64,000 nt of DNA from an uncultured Chloroflexia bacterium (GTDB lineage Bacteria > Chloroflexota > Limnocylindria > QHBO01). Below are positions 24,372-31,021 of this stretch, piece after piece. Made by a program: the position numbers and the translations under genes. Location: positions 256,001-320,000 of the forward strand of contig CAWFCQ010000007.1 in assembly GCA_963814375.1 (NCBI GenBank), read 5' to 3'. The notes below the pieces were generated by a model. It did no database searches. It had not been told where the DNA came from and saw nothing but the letters and a program-made list of their open reading frames with translations. Numbering within the stretch: position 1 is the stretch's first letter; each line of letters begins with the position of its first letter.

Positions 24372-25766
24372 TCACCGCGTCGCGATGATGGCGTAGGTCA
24401 CCGCGAAGGTCGCCTCCGCGAAGAGCGCGACGCGATCAAGGTCGACGTTGCCGATGTCATCGCAGGCGAGGTGATAGCACGCGTCCGGCGCCGGCCCGCC
24501 CCCACCGGCTCCGGGCTGGGCAGCCGAGCCGGTCTCGCTGGCGCCGGCGAAGAGGCCGCCGGTCGGGATGCCGGCGGCGGCAAAGCCGAAGTGATCCGAC
24601 GACCCGCCGAGGTCGACCGACTCGAACTCCTCCCCGCGCTCGGTGAGCCAAGCCTCGTAGCTCGAGGTGATCGCTGCCGAGCCCTCGGGCGCGCTCGGCT
24701 CGTCGTACACGAGGGTCGCCCCGTCGAGCGATCCTGCCATGTCGATGTTGAGGTAGGCGGCGGGGTCGTCCTCCAGCGACTCGACGTAGGCGCGCGATCC
24801 GATCGTGCCGAGCTCCTCGGCTCCCCACAGTCCGATGCGGACCGCCGAACCGTCCGGGACGCCGCCCTCGGAGAGGCCGCGCGCGATCTCGAGCATCGCC
24901 GCGACGCCGCTGCCGTTGTCATTCAACCCGGGCCCATCCAGCACCGAGTCGAGATGGGCGCCGAGCATGACCACATCCTCGCCGTCTCCCAGCTGGGCCA
25001 CGACGTTGCGAAGCGTCGCCGGCGCACGCTCGGTCTCGATGACCAGTCGGACCGGCTCGTCACCCATGGCCCCCAGCGCCTCCACCGCCTCGCCGGTGAC
25101 GCTGACGACCGGGAGCTCGATGCCTTCCGGCTCGATGAGCGTGGGGCGGAAGATCTCCCCGGGTCCGCGGTCCGGATAGCCGACGAGCAGCGCCGCGGCG
25201 CCGGCCTGTGCTGCGTTGAGGGCCTGCTGACGCCTGAAGCAGCCACCCTGGACCGTGAGCGCGATCTCGCCATCCTCGACCGCCGAGAAGTGCTCGGGCT
25301 CGCACCCGCTCTCGTCGAGCAATCGGACCCGTCCGGTGACGTCGCCGCCAGGCGAGTAGATGAGGGCGTGCAGCTCGTCCGGTGCGAGGAAGGCGCGCTC
25401 GCCGACCTCGAGCCGGCCGCCGGGGAGCTCACGGAACCCGGTAAACGACACCTCGGGGGTTGACACCTCGAAGCCGAGATCGCGCAGCGCATCGGCCGCG
25501 TAGTCCACCGATGCCTCATACCCGGCGGTCCCGGCGAATCGGATCCCCTCGTTAGCGTCCGCGATGGCCTGGAGCGCCTCGAGGTGCTCACGGAGCCGGT
25601 CGACGTCGGCGACGAAAGACGGAGACGCGGGAAGGCTCGCATCGACGTTGCTGGCAGCTGGTGCGTCCGGGCTCGCGGGTGAGGTCGAGGGTGCCTGGAT
25701 CCCGCAGGCGGCGAGGAGCAGCGCGAAGAGCGCCGGGGCGACGCGCCGTGATCGGTTCATCTGCAC
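24372..25766 (-). CDS. M28 family aminopeptidase lipoprotein with PA domain
   Basis: LLAAC lipobox, GAHLDSV..GPGLNDNGSG, WGAEELG, YLNIDM, SSDH, CYH..CD. Confidence 0.9.
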   Translation of the reverse strand: MQMNRSRRVAPALFALLLAACGIQAPSTSPASPDAPAASNVDASLPASPSFVADVDRLREHLEALQAIADANEGIRFAGTAGYEASVDYAADALRDLGFEVSTPEVSFTGFRELPGGRLEVGERAFLAPDELHALIYSPGGDVTGRVRLLDESGCEPEHFSAVEDGEIALTVQGGCFRRQQALNAAQAGAAALLVGYPDRGPGEIFRPTLIEPEGIELPVVSVTGEAVEALGAMGDEPVRLVIETERAPATLRNVVAQLGDGEDVVMLGAHLDSVLDGPGLNDNGSGVAAMLEIARGLSEGGVPDGSAVRIGLWGAEELGTIGSRAYVESLEDDPAAYLNIDMAGSLDGATLVYDEPSAPEGSAAITSSYEAWLTERGEEFESVDLGGSSDHFGFAAAGIPTGGLFAGASETGSAAQPGAGGGGPAPDACYHLACDDIGNVDLDRVALFAEATFAVTYAIIATR

Positions 25767-25794
25767 ACCGATACCCCGCCGAGCGGCGGACGGT

Positions 25795-27420
25795 TCATGT
25801 CCGGGACAGCGCTCCGCGGTACAGGTCGAGCAGCCGCGTGCTCAGTCCAGGCCCCGACGAGACCAGCTCACGGAACTCGTCGGCCTCGAGGGCCAGGAGG
25901 CGCGTCTCGCCGACGGCGGTCACCGATGCGGTGCGAGGCGAGTGACGGAGCAGCCCGATCTCACCGAAGAGGTCACCAGGGCCGAGATCGCGCAGGTGAA
26001 GGCCGGCCGGCCCCTGCGTGACCCGGACCGTCCCCTCCTCGATGAGATAGAACCGATCCGACGCGTCCCCCTCGCGCACCACGACCGTGCCGGCAACGGC
26101 CTCCATCGGCCGCAGCTGGCGAGCGGCCGTCTCGAGCCGGGCAGCGGGCAGCCCGGCGAAGATGGGGTGCTCGAGGAGGCGGGCACGCGCCGGATCGAGG
26201 GGCTCCGGCTCACCGCGGCCACCGGACAGGGCGAGCGCCGCGAGAACGCCACCCACCGAGACGACCGCGCAGCCGATCAGCACCTGGGCCACGCCGATCG
26301 CGCCGGCGAGCACCGGGACGATCAACGAGCCGAGGCTGTAGAGGATGGCGGAGGTGGTCTGCAGAACACCCATCGCGCGGCCGCGAAGGGCGTCGGGCAC
26401 GATCCGCTGGATGAGCGTGGTGTTGACCACGTCGAGCAGGAGGAGACCGGCAACCGCGATCGCCATCGCCACCATCGCCGCCGGCAGATTTCCGGCGAAC
26501 GCCAGCCAGGCGAGCCCGATGCCTCCCACGATCCCGCCGATGAGCAGCGGCACGCTGAGGCGGCGGGCCAGCAGCGCCCCGCCGGCGATGCCCGCCACCA
26601 CACCCCCGACGCCCGTCGCCGCGTTGAGGTACCCAGTGCCGGCCTCCCCCGCATCCAGGACGTCGAGGGCGATCACGACCGTCAGCACGCCCAGCCCGCC
26701 GCCCACCAGGCTGGTCGCCGAGTCGAGGACGAACGGGCCCGACAGCGGACCGACCAGCGATCGCCAACCGGGCGGCGCGGGAGCTTCGACAGCGTCGCCG
26801 GCCAATTCCTCGCCTGGCGCTGTCGAGGACGACGGGACCTTCAGTCGCCAGAGCACCACGGCGACGACACCGAACGACACGGCGTTGAGCAGGAATGCCC
26901 CGGCGAGATAGCCGGTGGCGAGGAGGATGCCGGCCAAAGCGGGACCGACGATGAAGGCGACGTTGTCGAGCGTGGCCCATGCGCTGTTGGCCGGCCCGAG
27001 GTCGCGCTCGTCGACCAGCATCGGCAGCAACGAGGCGATCGCCGGCCCGAAGAAGGTCGAGAAGCAGGCGGCCAGGATCGAGAGCGCCACGATCACGATG
27101 GTCGGCGCGCCCGCGACGACCGCCGCGGCCAGGGCGAGCATGATCACGCCACGCGCGACATCGGTGACGAGAAGGACCATGCGACGGTCGTATCGGTCAG
27201 CGACGATCCCCGCCGGCACGGACAGCAGGACGTACGGGAGGATGCGGGCGGCACCCACGATCCCGAGCAGGACCGGTGAGCTGCTCTCGGCGTAGACGAC
27301 CACGAGGACGGCGACGAGGTAGAGCCAATCGCCGATGCCGGAGATGAACTCGCCGATCAGCAGGCGCGCCAGCGCGCCGTTGCGGCGGAAGAGGTCGATG
27401 TAGGTCCCGAAGAGGCTCAC
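25795..27420 (-). CDS. MFS transporter fused to a C-terminal cNMP-binding domain
   Basis: GIVADRYDRR motif A, about 12 TMs, then GDLFGEIGLL..SPRTASV cNMP phosphate-binding cassette; GTG start overlaps the S8 stop. Confidence 0.88.
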   Translation of the reverse strand: MSLFGTYIDLFRRNGALARLLIGEFISGIGDWLYLVAVLVVVYAESSSPVLLGIVGAARILPYVLLSVPAGIVADRYDRRMVLLVTDVARGVIMLALAAAVVAGAPTIVIVALSILAACFSTFFGPAIASLLPMLVDERDLGPANSAWATLDNVAFIVGPALAGILLATGYLAGAFLLNAVSFGVVAVVLWRLKVPSSSTAPGEELAGDAVEAPAPPGWRSLVGPLSGPFVLDSATSLVGGGLGVLTVVIALDVLDAGEAGTGYLNAATGVGGVVAGIAGGALLARRLSVPLLIGGIVGGIGLAWLAFAGNLPAAMVAMAIAVAGLLLLDVVNTTLIQRIVPDALRGRAMGVLQTTSAILYSLGSLIVPVLAGAIGVAQVLIGCAVVSVGGVLAALALSGGRGEPEPLDPARARLLEHPIFAGLPAARLETAARQLRPMEAVAGTVVVREGDASDRFYLIEEGTVRVTQGPAGLHLRDLGPGDLFGEIGLLRHSPRTASVTAVGETRLLALEADEFRELVSSGPGLSTRLLDLYRGALSRT

Positions 27421-28265
27421 TCCGCCGAGCCGGCCCGGTGGCGCCACGGATGTCGGCGGCCCGGATTGTCGGCCACGCTGGTCAGCACCGCCTTGACCTC
27501 GAACGGGCTGAGGCCGGGATGCTTCGAGAGGATCAGGGCCACCAGGCCCGCGATGTGCGGCGCCGCGAAGCTATTGCCCGTGGCCACCGTCGAGCCGCCA
27601 TCCTTCCAGGCGATCGGGACGTCCACCCCCCAGGCGCCGAACTCGACCGGAGGGGACGGGTTGTAGTAGATCCGCCACGGATCGGGCTCGGGATGGGCGG
27701 CAACCGAGAAGACCGATGAGAAGAGCGATGGATAGCTCGGCGCCGGCACGTTGTTCGCGGCGCTGACCAGGGCCATCGACTGGAAGTAGGCGCGATCGGC
27801 CAGATCGTGGAAGACCGGATACAGCGACTCGCTCTTCGAGGAGAGACTTAGGTTGCAGACCTCGAGCCCCTGCTCGATCGCCCACTCCAGCCCCGCCGCG
27901 AAGGCCGTCCCCTTGCCGCGCAGGTCGGCGCCGAGGACGCGGATCGAGACCAGCTCGACCTCCGGCGCCATCGACAGGATGATGCCGCCGCACGCCGTGC
28001 CGTGGCCGAACATGTCGACGCCCTCGTCGGGAACGACGACGGGCCCATCGTCGGTCATCTCGACGGTGACGTTCTGGACGACGCGGCCGGCGAGACGTGG
28101 GTGGTCGTTCTCGAGCCCCGAGTCGATGATCCCGACCCGCACCCCGGCCCCCGTCGCGCCGCCCCAGGCCCAGTCGCGCGTGAGGCCGCGCAGGCGAAGC
28201 CGCCGACGCAGCTCGCGACGGGGATTGGCGAACGGCTCAGACCATGCCGGCAGCTCCGGCGTCAT
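27417..28265 (-). CDS. Cytoplasmic S8 family serine peptidase (no signal peptide, minimal catalytic domain)
   Basis: IIDSG, HGTACGG, SAANN and GNSFAAPH catalytic motifs. Confidence 0.9.
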   Translation of the reverse strand: MTPELPAWSEPFANPRRELRRRLRLRGLTRDWAWGGATGAGVRVGIIDSGLENDHPRLAGRVVQNVTVEMTDDGPVVVPDEGVDMFGHGTACGGIILSMAPEVELVSIRVLGADLRGKGTAFAAGLEWAIEQGLEVCNLSLSSKSESLYPVFHDLADRAYFQSMALVSAANNVPAPSYPSLFSSVFSVAAHPEPDPWRIYYNPSPPVEFGAWGVDVPIAWKDGGSTVATGNSFAAPHIAGLVALILSKHPGLSPFEVKAVLTSVADNPGRRHPWRHRAGSAE

Positions 28266-29041
28266 CGGCGCATGGAGCTGCGCTGGCCACGCTCAGCATG
28301 ACCGGCGACGACCTCGAGAATATCGGCCACCAGGTCGAGCTCCCGGTCGCTGAGCCCGCGGAGCCGCGCGACCTGGTCGACGAGCCGCCAGAAGGGCGCA
28401 TCCTCGTCAGCGTCGAGGCCCGCCGTCGCCGTCGAGACCGCCGCCTCGACCTCGGCATCGGTCAGCTCGCCGCCGAGCTCGCGAAGCACGGTGCCGATCA
28501 GCCGCGTCGTGTCGCGTTGCACCTTGGCCGCCCCGATGGCAACCGTTGCCTGGCCGGCGAAGACGCCGAGCAGCTCCATGTCTCGCAGCGAGAAGGTGGC
28601 CGATGAATGCTTGTCGAGGACCTGGAGGACGCCGACCACGGCGTCCTCGCCGGTCAGTGGCGCAGCGGCGATCGAGCGCGGGACATAGCCCGTCTGCTCG
28701 GCGGCGTCGCGATTGAAACGTGGATCGCTGGCGACGTCCGAGAGGGCGAGTGCCTGACCGGTGGAATACACGAAGCCAACGATGCCCTGCGTGGGCGGCA
28801 CAGAGAGGCCGATCGCGCCCGCGCCCTTCTCACCGGCGGCGACGCGAAAAACGAGCCGGTCCGGATCCGGCTCGAAAAGAGCGATGGAGGCGGCCTCGGC
28901 ATCGAAGAGGCGCACCGTGGCGTCGACGATGCTCTGGAGAAGCCTCGTCTCGATGTCGCCCTGGAGCCGCCGACCGACGGCGGAACGCCGCGACGCCGCA
29001 ACGAGTGCGGCGATCGCGGCATCCACCGGAGGGTCTGCCAC
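28262..29041 (-). CDS. Stand-alone GAF domain protein
   Basis: AEAASIAL, GIVGFV..TGQ, DPRFN, RSIAAAPL, GVLQVLDK, FSLRDMELL. Confidence 0.88.
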   Translation of the reverse strand: MADPPVDAAIAALVAASRRSAVGRRLQGDIETRLLQSIVDATVRLFDAEAASIALFEPDPDRLVFRVAAGEKGAGAIGLSVPPTQGIVGFVYSTGQALALSDVASDPRFNRDAAEQTGYVPRSIAAAPLTGEDAVVGVLQVLDKHSSATFSLRDMELLGVFAGQATVAIGAAKVQRDTTRLIGTVLRELGGELTDAEVEAAVSTATAGLDADEDAPFWRLVDQVARLRGLSDRELDLVADILEVVAGHAERGQRSSMRR

Positions 29042-29057
29042 CGGCGTGGCTACCGGT

Positions 29058-29502
29058 TCAGCGCTTCAGGGTCCCGTGACCCTCGGTGTCGTCTTCCTCG
29101 GCGCGGCGGCTCAGCCCGCCGATGTGGCCCTCAACGTCGTCCTCGTCGGCACGCTTGAGGACGCCGTGGCCCTCCGTGTCGTCCCTCAGCGCGCTTGAGC
29201 ACGCCGTGACCCTCGACGTCGTCTTCGTCGGCACGCTTGAGGACGCCGTGGCCCTCCGTGTCGTCCTCGTCAGCGCGCTTGAGCACGCCGTGACCCTCTG
29301 TGTCGTCCTCATCGGCGCGCTTGAGCACGCCGTGACCCTCGGTGTCGTCGTCAGTCGCGCGGAAGCCCGACTGACCGCCTTCCTGGATTCTCTCGTCGTC
29401 CATCATGTGACCCTCCACTGAATCGTCATCGTGTGCCTCCCCGCCGAGCGAACCCGGTCGGGAGAAGCCCTCCATCGGCGGACGCCGCCGGTAGTTGTCC
29501 AT
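29058..29502 (-). CDS. Acidic tandem-repeat (poly)peptide precursor, about 7x ADEDDTEGHGVLKR; apparent net 2-nt deletion near 29185
   Basis: GGAGG RBS upstream of ATG 29502; ORFs 29131-29502 and 29058-29312 join into one repeat protein ending GTLKR*; variation between repeats is mainly at synonymous positions. Confidence 0.8.
29061..29360 (-). repeat. 42-nt coding tandem repeat (7 units)
   Basis: Recurring gcgcttgagcacgccgtgaccctc..gtcgtc units about every 42 nt (one 40-nt and one 48-nt unit). Confidence 0.9.
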
Positions 29503-29562
29503 GCGATCCTTCGCCTCCTAGCTGGCAGCGTACTCGCATCCAATGTCACGAATCCTAGGCCC

Positions 29563-29578
29563 GGTGATGACTTTCGCA
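29563..29578. promoter_or_regulatory. Candidate CRP/FNR-type binding site upstream of the repeat-peptide gene
   Basis: GGTGA-tgactt-TCGCA, 8/10 match to TGTGA-N6-TCACA, between crp and the precursor gene. Confidence 0.4.
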
Positions 29579-29622
29579 GCATCGCTGACCGGACAGATCC
29601 GATGTCGGTTACGCGACAGTGT

Positions 29623-30318
29623 TCACCGCGCTCCGTGCCGCTCGAGCTCCGCGAGATCGTGGATCACGAGCGTGTCACGTTCGATGCTGATGAGTCCGTC
29701 GTCGACCAAACCGCTCAGAAGCTTGTTCACGCTCTGGCGCGTTCCGCCGATCATGGCGGCCAGGTCGGACTGAGTGTAGGGCCAGTCGAGCTCGACCCGG
29801 CCGGTGGCCTGCGGCGAGGCGTCCCGAGCCACGCGCACGAGGCGCATCGAGAGGCGGCCCGCAAGGTCCAGGAAGTGCAGCTCCTCGACGTGACCGGTGA
29901 GGCGCCGCAGCTCCTCTGCCAGGGCGTGGAGGAGGGCGGTCACGAGATGCGGATCATCCCTGAGCAGGTTGAGGAACGGCTCGCGCGGCAGGGCCAACGT
30001 CTCGGTCGGCTCGATCGCCGTAGCCGTGGTTGACCTGGGCGAGCTGTCGAGCAGCGCGAGCTCGCCGAAGAAGTCCCCCGGCTTGAGGCTGGCGATGATC
30101 GCCTCCTCGCCCTCCGTCGACGGCAGGACGATCTTGACGCCGCCGGCCGCCACCACCTGGAGCGAATCGCCGATGTCACCCTGGTGGAAGATCACCTCGT
30201 TGCGCCGGAAGCGCCGCCTGCGCATCTGCGCCGCGATCGCGCGGAGGGCCTCGTCGGTGACGTGCGCAAAGAGGGCGCACCGCCGAAGGCTGTCGACCGC
30301 CAGGGATTCGTCCAGCAC
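29623..30318 (-). CDS. Crp/Fnr family transcriptional regulator
   Basis: IFHQGD, PGDFFGELALLDSSPRSTTA, TQSDLAAMIGGTRQSVNK HTH. Confidence 0.92.
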   Translation of the reverse strand: MLDESLAVDSLRRCALFAHVTDEALRAIAAQMRRRRFRRNEVIFHQGDIGDSLQVVAAGGVKIVLPSTEGEEAIIASLKPGDFFGELALLDSSPRSTTATAIEPTETLALPREPFLNLLRDDPHLVTALLHALAEELRRLTGHVEELHFLDLAGRLSMRLVRVARDASPQATGRVELDWPYTQSDLAAMIGGTRQSVNKLLSGLVDDGLISIERDTLVIHDLAELERHGAR

Positions 30319-30571
30319 GCGTGATCCTCAGACTCGGGCGAATGAGCAGGGCAGTGCGGACACTCTCGTGGTGTGCCTCTCCGCCGTCAAGGGGTCACCA
30401 ACGCGTTTTCCCCAGGTGTCATGCGGCCGACACGAGGAGCGCCGCGGACGGACATCACGCCCATCGGGACGTTGACGACCCGGCTGTCGCCCGCTTGCTC
30501 ACGAGGACGGGCACAGCGGCGGGAGGATGGCACCAGGCAAACGAGCCCACAACGCTCGAAGGAGGAATCCG

Positions 30572-30945: not shown

Positions 30946-31021
30946 GCGGGAGTAGCTCAGCTGGCAGAGCGCGACCTTCCCAAGGTTGAGGCCGCGGGTT
31001 CGATCCCCGTCTCCCGCTCCA
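30946..31021 (+). tRNA. tRNA-Gly (CCC)
   Basis: GCGGGAG acceptor stem, TT-CCC-AA loop, GGTTCGATCC T-arm, encoded CCA; TGcTAGAAT extended -10 upstream. Confidence 0.96.

Follow-up and report, generated by a model that had tools for sequence, protein, structure and literature searches.

A conserved and apparently undescribed gene set in Candidatus Limnocylindria pairs a GAF-partnered subtilase with an EGH-motif repeat protein

Introduction

Cyanobactin precursors such as PatE carry several cassettes per molecule, in which short recognition sequences flank hypervariable stretches, and are cut by the S8-family proteases PatA and PatG. Kex2/furin enzymes, which combine acidic S1 and S2 pockets with a P-domain, process yeast alpha-factor and the fungal KEP precursors in the secretory pathway by cleaving behind dibasic pairs. 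QhpE is a small cytoplasmic subtilisin-like leader peptidase in the maturation of quinohemoprotein amine dehydrogenase, and the NHLP/Nif11-type precursors of RiPPs (peptides synthesised ribosomally and modified after translation) consist of a leader and a core that meet at a Gly-Gly junction. Here we describe a module from a 64,000-nucleotide stretch of DNA (the window) of Candidatus (Ca.) Limnocylindria, in the phylum Chloroflexota (assembly GCA_963814375.1, contig CAWFCQ010000007.1, positions 256,001 to 320,000), in which the gene for a repeat protein lies beside genes for a Crp-family regulator, a GAF-domain protein and an S8-family subtilase. The source genome comprises 2.5 Mb in 8 contigs and is 89% complete; genomes, contigs and loci are cited below by our own G, C and L labels, the window lying on G000:C7.

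Limnocylindria are widespread in soils and fresh water; we know of no cultured member, and of no account of their cell biology. The combination of Crp, GAF protein, cytoplasmic subtilase and a repeat protein bearing Glu-Gly-His (EGH) motifs is a conserved gene set that is apparently undescribed: literature searches on the motif, on Limnocylindria subtilase precursors, on GAF/subtilase/Crp combinations and on multicore precursors returned nothing relevant at the level of search results. An earlier note on the window, made from its sequence alone, had read the locus as a dedicated S8 protease acting on a multi-unit precursor under cyclic-nucleotide-type control, with kexin-like cutting at KR pairs. 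Comparison with related loci bears out the outline, for which we propose a different and still conditional mechanism.

Results

The core genes recur together across the class. In a sample of 201 Ca. Limnocylindria genomes, G000 included, a profile of the repeat protein matched 50 and an S8 ortholog (E<=1e-60) was present in 80; this and the later class tallies take in three unpublished genomes (G123, G087 and G096), on which no claim depends alone. Within genus g1 both genes occur in the same 12 of 18 genomes and neither occurs in the other six. Of the 49 profile-matched genomes besides G000, 47 also have S8, with the two genes on one contig within about 2.2 kb of each other in 45 and at contig ends in the other two. 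Neighbourhoods were compared at 52 class loci, consisting of 20 anchored on the repeat protein and all 32 from genomes with S8 but without a profile match, at which the presence of Crp, GAF, S8, MFS and M28 genes was scored by tblastn. GAF was found at all 52, S8 at 51 (the exception is a contig end), an adjacent Crp ortholog at 45, and an adjacent ortholog of the MFS transporter with a cNMP-binding domain at 35. The side and orientation of this last gene vary, as it lies downstream of S8 in the window's genus and elsewhere usually upstream of crp, sometimes divergently. Across Chloroflexota, every one of the 71 loci with S8 has the GAF gene next to it; a 72nd locus (L038) breaks off at its contig end within GAF.

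An open reading frame (ORF) with at least two [T/V/A]-[E/Q/A]-G-H motifs is present at 37 of the 52 class loci. Only such ORFs were counted as firm; a single-motif pattern gave evident chance matches. At most of the remaining class loci S8 is followed immediately by a small convergent ORF with one or two motifs. By this comparison Crp, the repeat protein, GAF and S8 are the conserved core of the module in Ca. Limnocylindria, often with the MFS gene adjacent, and the earlier note's grouping of these four as a functional set gains comparative support. Single continuous ORFs span GAF and S8 at two loci (L067:3975-5645, 557 aa, and L053:4880-6949, 690 aa), which may be real fusions or products of an assembly artefact or frameshift. 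The repeat gene also appears at 53-62% identity on contigs titled as metagenome-assembled genomes (MAGs) of Steroidobacteraceae, Acidimicrobiales, Binatia and Angelobacter (L125, L134, L136, L141, L144 and L149); these are most likely mis-binned, rather than signs of a wider host range.

The repeat protein itself is small and disordered. Its gene (29058-29502, minus strand) encodes a conserved N-terminal region followed by units ending in D-D-[T/V]-E-G-H, and Tandem Repeats Finder detects a period of 42 with 6.8 copies (score 310) or, alternatively, a period of 84 (score 362), well above what chance would give. The ATG at 29502 is preceded by AGGAGG, and the ORF that it opens stops at 29131 after 123 aa, with an out-of-frame tail, owing to a frameshift in the fifth unit at "gctgagggac" (GGG at 29183-29185). 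This represents one base over a 39-nt unit or two bases under a 42-nt unit, and the last three units continue in the frame of ORF 29058-29312. The precursor of about 148 aa and seven units described previously is therefore sound as to the repeat, but the assembly holds no 148-aa ORF, and seven units plus an N-terminal VEGH pseudo-unit are obtained only by reading through the frameshift. In nine relatives from the same genus the profile match runs over the full length, interrupted by no internal stop in eight and by a single TAG in G123. Among public sequencing runs, the best of which covered at most 0.38 of the sampled words, no contig listed spans 29166-29185 and no indel is reported; because no placed public contig bridges the site, sequencing error and real mutation are indistinguishable there. 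Soil metatranscriptome contigs cover 28942-29420 at high identity, with 17 of the 47 placed pieces at 99% or above, which is evidence of presence in an RNA library and falls short of proof of transcription.

Homologs of the repeat protein number 243 (E<=1e-3) among proteins 67-216 aa in length, and all are unannotated. Neither Pfam nor NCBIfam gave a match to the protein apart from MORN, below its cut-off. A search for related loci by N-terminal patterns returned 42, nearly all titled as Ca. Limnocylindria or Chloroflexota MAGs, and these represent the close family alone, since the patterns were N-terminal only. The N-terminal region is common to close relatives, and the number of units varies. 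Conservation within the units was quantified over 739 EGH-defined sites in 149 proteins, after ORFs with runs of N and two membrane-type proteins had been dropped. Counting back from the His as P1, P4 is T at 487 sites, V at 235 and A at 17; P5 is D at 612, P6 is D at 609, and P7 is D or E at 698. The acidic-[T/V]-E-G-H signature alone is kept across the family; P1' and the linkers are variable. Linkers range from 9 to 67 residues and shift between species to quite different low-complexity repeats, which are homogenised inside one protein and differ from species to species. Beyond the last motif the proteins mostly end in a basic tail of 4-7 residues.

The dibasic pairs that the earlier note took as unit boundaries behave differently from the motif. 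Every unit in the window genome contains KR or RR, but such pairs occur in 249 of 590 linkers across the family, and 52 of the 149 proteins have none in any linker. Variability of KR/RR among homologous precursors, which the note had named as telling against it, thus counts against cutting at these pairs and not against processing by S8.

The S8 gene (27417-28265, minus strand) encodes 282 aa, of which residues 39-267 match Peptidase_S8 (PF00082; 5.8e-26, 91.9 bits against a cut-off of 21.8), leaving no room for a prodomain. No signal peptide was seen on it or on the repeat protein, as judged by eye only. The enzyme is a subtilase by the order of its catalytic triad, by its oxyanion Asn and by a Pfam score that exceeds the gathering cut-off, and the triad D48, H88 and S232, together with N172, is invariant in 40 orthologs. 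Its AlphaFold2 model (predicted local distance difference test score, pLDDT, 88.8) matches the fold of subtilisin BPN' at a TM score of about 0.7, and BPN' and its kin are the nearest solved sequences and folds. The protein is hence well described as a prodomain-less, apparently cytoplasmic and catalytically intact subtilase, and the repeat protein, which the earlier note took as its substrate, is on comparative grounds the most likely one. Complex prediction for S8, GAF and residues 1-62 of the repeat protein scored 0.01 against a mark of 0.32, and is uninformative either way. The best NCBIfam match of S8 is QhpE (NF049966), at 110.9 bits over nearly the full profile and below the cut-off of 165; the PatA/PatG model (TIGR03895) gave 15.2 bits against a cut-off of 421.

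Alignment to BPN' equates E156 with Val173, G166 with Ser177 (invariant) and G127 with Ser142 around S1, and, elsewhere in the cleft, P129 with Lys144, S101 with Arg116 and Q103 with Lys118. These BPN' positions belong to the substrate subsites, G127 to the S1 wall, and kexins select Lys or Arg through acidic S1 and S2 pockets. The kexin analogy fails on this alignment, because the S1 positions Val173 and Ser177 are not acidic. The other features of the kexin/furin class are likewise absent, the protein being 282 aa with a single Pfam domain and the dibasic sites being unconserved.

Relatives in other classes extend the association between protease and motif. A phylum sample of 401 genomes (which takes in the unpublished G331) yielded S8 orthologs, 47-56% identical, in 45, and the GAF gene adjoins S8 at all 20 loci fetched from these classes. 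Six of the 20 have EGH ORFs (L104 and L109-L113), and five have ORFs resembling leader-core precursors (L098, L099 with three in tandem, L100, L107 and L114). In the latter five the sequence D-V-[E/Q]-G-[Y/F] lies exactly at the junction and is followed by Trp/Tyr-rich or Cys-rich tails. This position at leader-core junctions suggests that the motif behaves as a processing site of the GAF-S8 protease clade.

Several of these loci have features of their own. The precursor-like genes at L099:7205-8256 (minus strand), L098:6813-7121, L100:7234-7960 and L107:4973-5236 encode a helical leader (...FVEKLAxFRSTL...) joined through D-V-Q-G-Y/F to Trp/Tyr-rich tails, and matched no Pfam or NCBIfam family. 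At L114:9494-9784 (minus strand), about 3 kb from a GAF-S8 pair with Gly at position 142, an NHLP-like precursor has G-D-V-E-G-Y and then a Cys-rich tail; it scored 23.1 against a cut-off of 40, and 17.4 against 50.9, with NHLP-clan models, below both. The pair at L101:7207-11385 stands beside MFS_3, a Haem_oxygenas_2 iron redox enzyme and two radical SAM genes, whose best match, below cut-off, is a YydG-type epimerase; this is likely a modified-peptide cluster. The small protein of L111 has 24 relatives, among which the sole taxon-labelled match is Ca. Dormiibacterota. As regards Actinomycetota, a protein-cluster atlas gave no more than leads to 87-aa clusters at a score of 0.89.

The columns that separate His-type from Tyr/Phe-type enzymes fall in the substrate cleft, with Ser142, K144 and R116 covarying with the motif. 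Position 142 is Ser at the 51 class loci that hold S8 (51/51) and at the six outside loci with EGH ORFs (6/6), and Gly at all five Tyr/Phe-type loci and all nine unassigned ones. Position 144 is K or R in His-type loci (Ser in L111 and L113) and Thr in the others (Arg in L115). Genome G275 contains two paralogous GAF-S8 modules: the Ser142-type module (L104) adjoins a five-motif EGH protein with His-rich HTHHGAPKH linkers, and the Gly142-type module (L103) is without a recognised partner ORF, so that each paralog sits at its own locus type. The covariation of position 142 with His versus Tyr/Phe would place that residue in S1 and the cut after it, and the T/V at P4 and Gly at P2 fit subtilisin subsite preferences. 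Cutting before the Glu, which would yield an amino-terminal copper- and nickel-binding (ATCUN) site of the form free N-terminus-X-X-His, was also considered, and was rejected because the same covariation puts the His or Tyr/Phe at P1.

The regulator (231 aa; 29623-30318, minus strand) fits the Crp/Fnr class, with both domains above cut-off (Pfam cNMP_binding 1.3e-25 and HTH_Crp_2 1.5e-14) and a palindromic 5-N6-5 candidate operator adjoining its gene. This Crp-box-like palindrome, TGTCG-N6-CGACA, lies at 29603-29618 (no strand), 101 nt upstream of the repeat-gene ATG, and an alignment of intergenic regions from the same genus shows invariant half-sites in 8 of 8. The exact box occurs once in the window against 0.17 expected. 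It is present at 23 of 72 loci, where it mostly stands a short way upstream of the small ORFs that bear the motif, whatever their placement; one exact box precedes the Tyr-type precursor of L107. Over the whole genome the exact box shows no enrichment, with 3 found against 2.4 expected. A one-mismatch copy, TGTCATGCGGCCGACA, lies at 30417-30432 (no strand; G000:C7:286417), about 99 nt upstream of the crp start, and weakly suggests autoregulation, being a single site.

The Crp protein and the C-terminal domain of the transporter share FGE...R[ST]A cassettes like those of cyclic-nucleotide-binding domains. The transporter gene (25795-27447, minus strand) encodes an EntS-like MFS_1/MFS_3 protein fused to a C-terminal cNMP_binding domain, as assigned by Pfam. 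The GAF protein (259 aa; 28262-29041, minus strand) combines a GAF domain (Pfam 3e-18, residues 33-169) with a C-terminal helical region, and the nearest solved folds to its AlphaFold2 model (pLDDT 84) include cAMP/cGMP-binding GAF domains, such as those of PDE10A, PDE2A, Lcd1-cAMP, PDE6 and CyaB2, along with heme-binding and other GAFs. Its residues D143, K144, F150 and D154 show little or no variation among 40 orthologs, forming a D-K-x5-F-x3-D pattern that resembles the NKFDE motif of cyclic-nucleotide GAFs. The class III nucleotidyl cyclase domain is matched 24 times in G000, 23 times above cut-off, which is unusually cyclase-rich for a small 2.5-Mb genome. Cassettes, GAF folds and cyclase number together make it plausible by comparison that Crp, GAF and the MFS C-domain read cyclic nucleotides, as had been suggested.

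A second gene with EGH motifs is present in G000, unlinked to the module (L159:3175-3831; G000:C6:156674-157330, minus strand). Its 218-aa product, for which Pfam gave no match, bears three D-T-E-G-H motifs within the N-terminal portion, a single membrane helix (99-124) and, as its tail, a GSAWTADERAGL-like repeat. Three one-mismatch copies of the TGTCG-N6-CGACA box lie 90-180 nt upstream of this gene. Homologs of this protein stand convergent after S8 at L055, L056, L058 and L061, which links motif and protease in yet a third kind of protein and is also compatible with a regulatory, non-export reading. Across the genome, [DE][TV]EGH in ORFs with high GC content at third codon positions has 7 matches, of which 6 are in the repeat gene and the L159 gene.

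The layout of the module in the window accords with the earlier description of six co-oriented genes with the stated domains, as ORFs and Pfam confirm, all on the minus strand. The GAF and S8 genes overlap by ATGA, S8 and MFS could overlap by GTGA at an in-frame GTG (27420), and the gaps between repeat gene and GAF and between MFS and M28 are 16 nt and 28 nt. The sixth gene (24372-25766, minus strand), assigned by domain matches, encodes an M28/PA aminopeptidase with a lipoprotein-like N-terminus. It had been proposed as a component of the system, and is adjacent at just 2 of 52 class loci (L034 and L035) and at none of the 20 from other classes, hence we regard it as a local neighbour. Upstream, the module is bounded by a tRNA-Gly gene (anticodon CCC; 30946-31021, plus strand), some 630 nt past the start of crp. 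The GAF coding region contains a GC-rich hairpin and T run that resemble a terminator (28852-28874, minus strand), one being found against 1.4 expected by chance, and a promoter scan found no sigma-70-like sites.

Discussion

These comparisons lead us to propose that a Crp-controlled, GAF-partnered cytoplasmic subtilase cuts after the His of each D-D-[T/V]-E-G-H motif, a reading to which we assign a probability of about one half. The Crp-family regulator would bind TGTCG-N6-CGACA and drive an operon of repeat gene, GAF, S8 and MFS, and the disordered repeat protein would present an array of recognition sites to the prodomain-less subtilase. S8 would read [D/E]-D-D-[T/V]-E-G-H, its S1, S2 and S4 subsites taking up the His, the Gly and the Thr/Val, while the basic cleft residues K144 and R116 would meet the acidic P5-P7. 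Cutting after His at every site would yield several short peptides per molecule, which in this genome would be 13- to 16-residue units ending ...DD[T/V]EGH, and would leave a short basic piece from the C-terminus. Coupled in translation, the GAF protein may be the partner of the protease, probably as a cyclic-nucleotide-responsive regulator or a substrate adaptor, and the cNMP-gated MFS encoded downstream in this genus probably exports the products.

Several points weigh against this proposal. Firstly, the argument for cleavage is one of sequence comparison throughout, and the motif could be a binding site instead of a scissile one. Secondly, the subsite assignments come from alignment to BPN' combined with subsite maps, rather than from a docked model. 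Thirdly, the S8s of the Tyr/Phe-type and unassigned loci group in a single nested clade (support 95/91), so the covariation at the S1 wall counts as roughly one independent switch in evolution and is suggestive, short of statistical proof. Fourthly, no motif-bearing ORF was recognised at L057, L062, L072, L081, L083 or the short L084, and single-motif matches at the loci include chance ones. Fifthly, the window's own copy of the repeat gene is frameshifted. Finally, 17 of the 52 class loci lack an MFS gene, which also varies in position, and to our knowledge MFS transporters are unusual as exporters of peptides of 13 to 16 residues.

In the strongest competing explanation, the repeat protein is a regulator or decoy whose multivalent motifs titrate or scaffold GAF-S8, the real targets being proteins such as the membrane-anchored EGH protein, with no export at all. 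Recurrence of the motif in that unrelated single-pass membrane protein, the box-like sites upstream of its gene, the spacer-like character of low-complexity and extremely variable linkers, and the inconstancy of the MFS gene all speak for it. However, the motif's place at leader-core-like junctions in other classes fits productive processing, the homogenisation of linker repeats within each protein and their divergence between species are as expected if the units matter, and the MFS-cNMP gene is frequently linked. We consider a decoy unlikely, at roughly one chance in five.

Another rival is a true RiPP system, in which enzymes encoded elsewhere modify the units, either prior to or following their release by S8, and S8 is a mere leader or spacer peptidase. 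Related GAF-S8 pairs do stand beside radical SAM and iron redox enzyme genes, as at L101, or beside NHLP-like or aromatic-rich precursors, and QhpE, the best sub-cut-off NCBIfam match of S8, is the leader peptidase of a modified peptide. Yet the conserved residues are limited to the presumed recognition motif, and none of the six genes encodes a modifying enzyme, the search having covered linked genes; nor is one conserved in the 52 class loci, where Crp, GAF, S8, MFS and M28 were scored and the other neighbours inspected in part. Modification of the units thus seems improbable to us.

Slighter still is the chance that the repeat protein is an Asp/His-rich metal binder or buffer that the protease merely turns over. 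Each unit sets one His beside four or five carboxylates, and the MFS is of the EntS/MFS_3 type, whose members are known as exporters of metal chelators. An invariant Gly and a strict T/V at P4 are nevertheless unneeded in a metal site, the Tyr/Phe variants of other classes have no His, and the regulator is of the Crp type, with no conserved metal-responsive regulator or metal transporter nearby. The kexin/furin-like version, in which S8 cuts after KR and a surface M28 aminopeptidase trims exported peptides, drew on the KR or RR in every unit of the window genome and on the M28 gene 28 nt after MFS, but the erratic dibasic pairs, the non-acidic S1 positions of a BPN'-type fold and the rarity of M28 at related loci have, on comparison, largely refuted it, and we give it next to no credence.

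Returning to processing after His, an unusually sharp six-residue signature joined to a sensor-coupled subtilase permits a precise prediction, of a cut site and of a one-residue specificity switch. If it is true, the module would contain a new site-specific protease and possible tool, would represent a new bacterial means of obtaining numerous short peptides from a single gene with no modifying enzyme involved, and would link cyclic-nucleotide signalling to peptide production and export. The loci of other classes point to further undescribed precursor families served by the same protease clade. A wider and distinctly tentative scenario, which we rate as doubtful, is that this abundant, uncultured soil lineage uses short, linear, unmodified, species-specific peptides as signals or metal ligands, produced in the cytoplasm by a cyclic-nucleotide-gated subtilase that cuts a multi-site precursor after the His of D-D-[T/V]-E-G-H, and exported by a cNMP-gated MFS, and that the GAF-partnered clade, through a Ser-to-Gly change at BPN' position 127, is the leader peptidase for several undescribed Chloroflexota precursor families.

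Among known systems, Kex2/furin precursors share the principle of many short units in one precursor and an S8 protease. Here, by contrast, the dibasic pairs are unconserved and D-D-[T/V]-E-G-H is conserved, S1 has Val and Ser, and there is neither a P-domain nor a signal peptide. QhpE offers a closer likeness as a minimal, prodomain-less cytoplasmic subtilase for a dedicated small precursor, although the S8 score falls below that family's cut-off, no qhp partner genes are seen in the cluster, and the substrate would be an array of sites rather than a single leader. The precursor-like ORFs of other classes resemble NHLP/Nif11-type precursors in their helical leader, short junction motif and Trp/Tyr- or Cys-rich tail, but the junction is D-V-[E/Q]-G-[Y/F] instead of Gly-Gly, the L114 matches are below cut-off, and the Limnocylindria repeat proteins have no such leader. 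Cyanobactins share a multi-site ribosomal precursor, a conserved short recognition motif, variable stretches and a dedicated S8 protease, whereas the present system, in another phylum and with another recognition motif, has no heterocyclase, macrocyclase insert or DUF domain. Conversely, cyanobactin clusters are without the GAF partner, the Crp regulator and the cNMP-gated MFS, all of which are present here.

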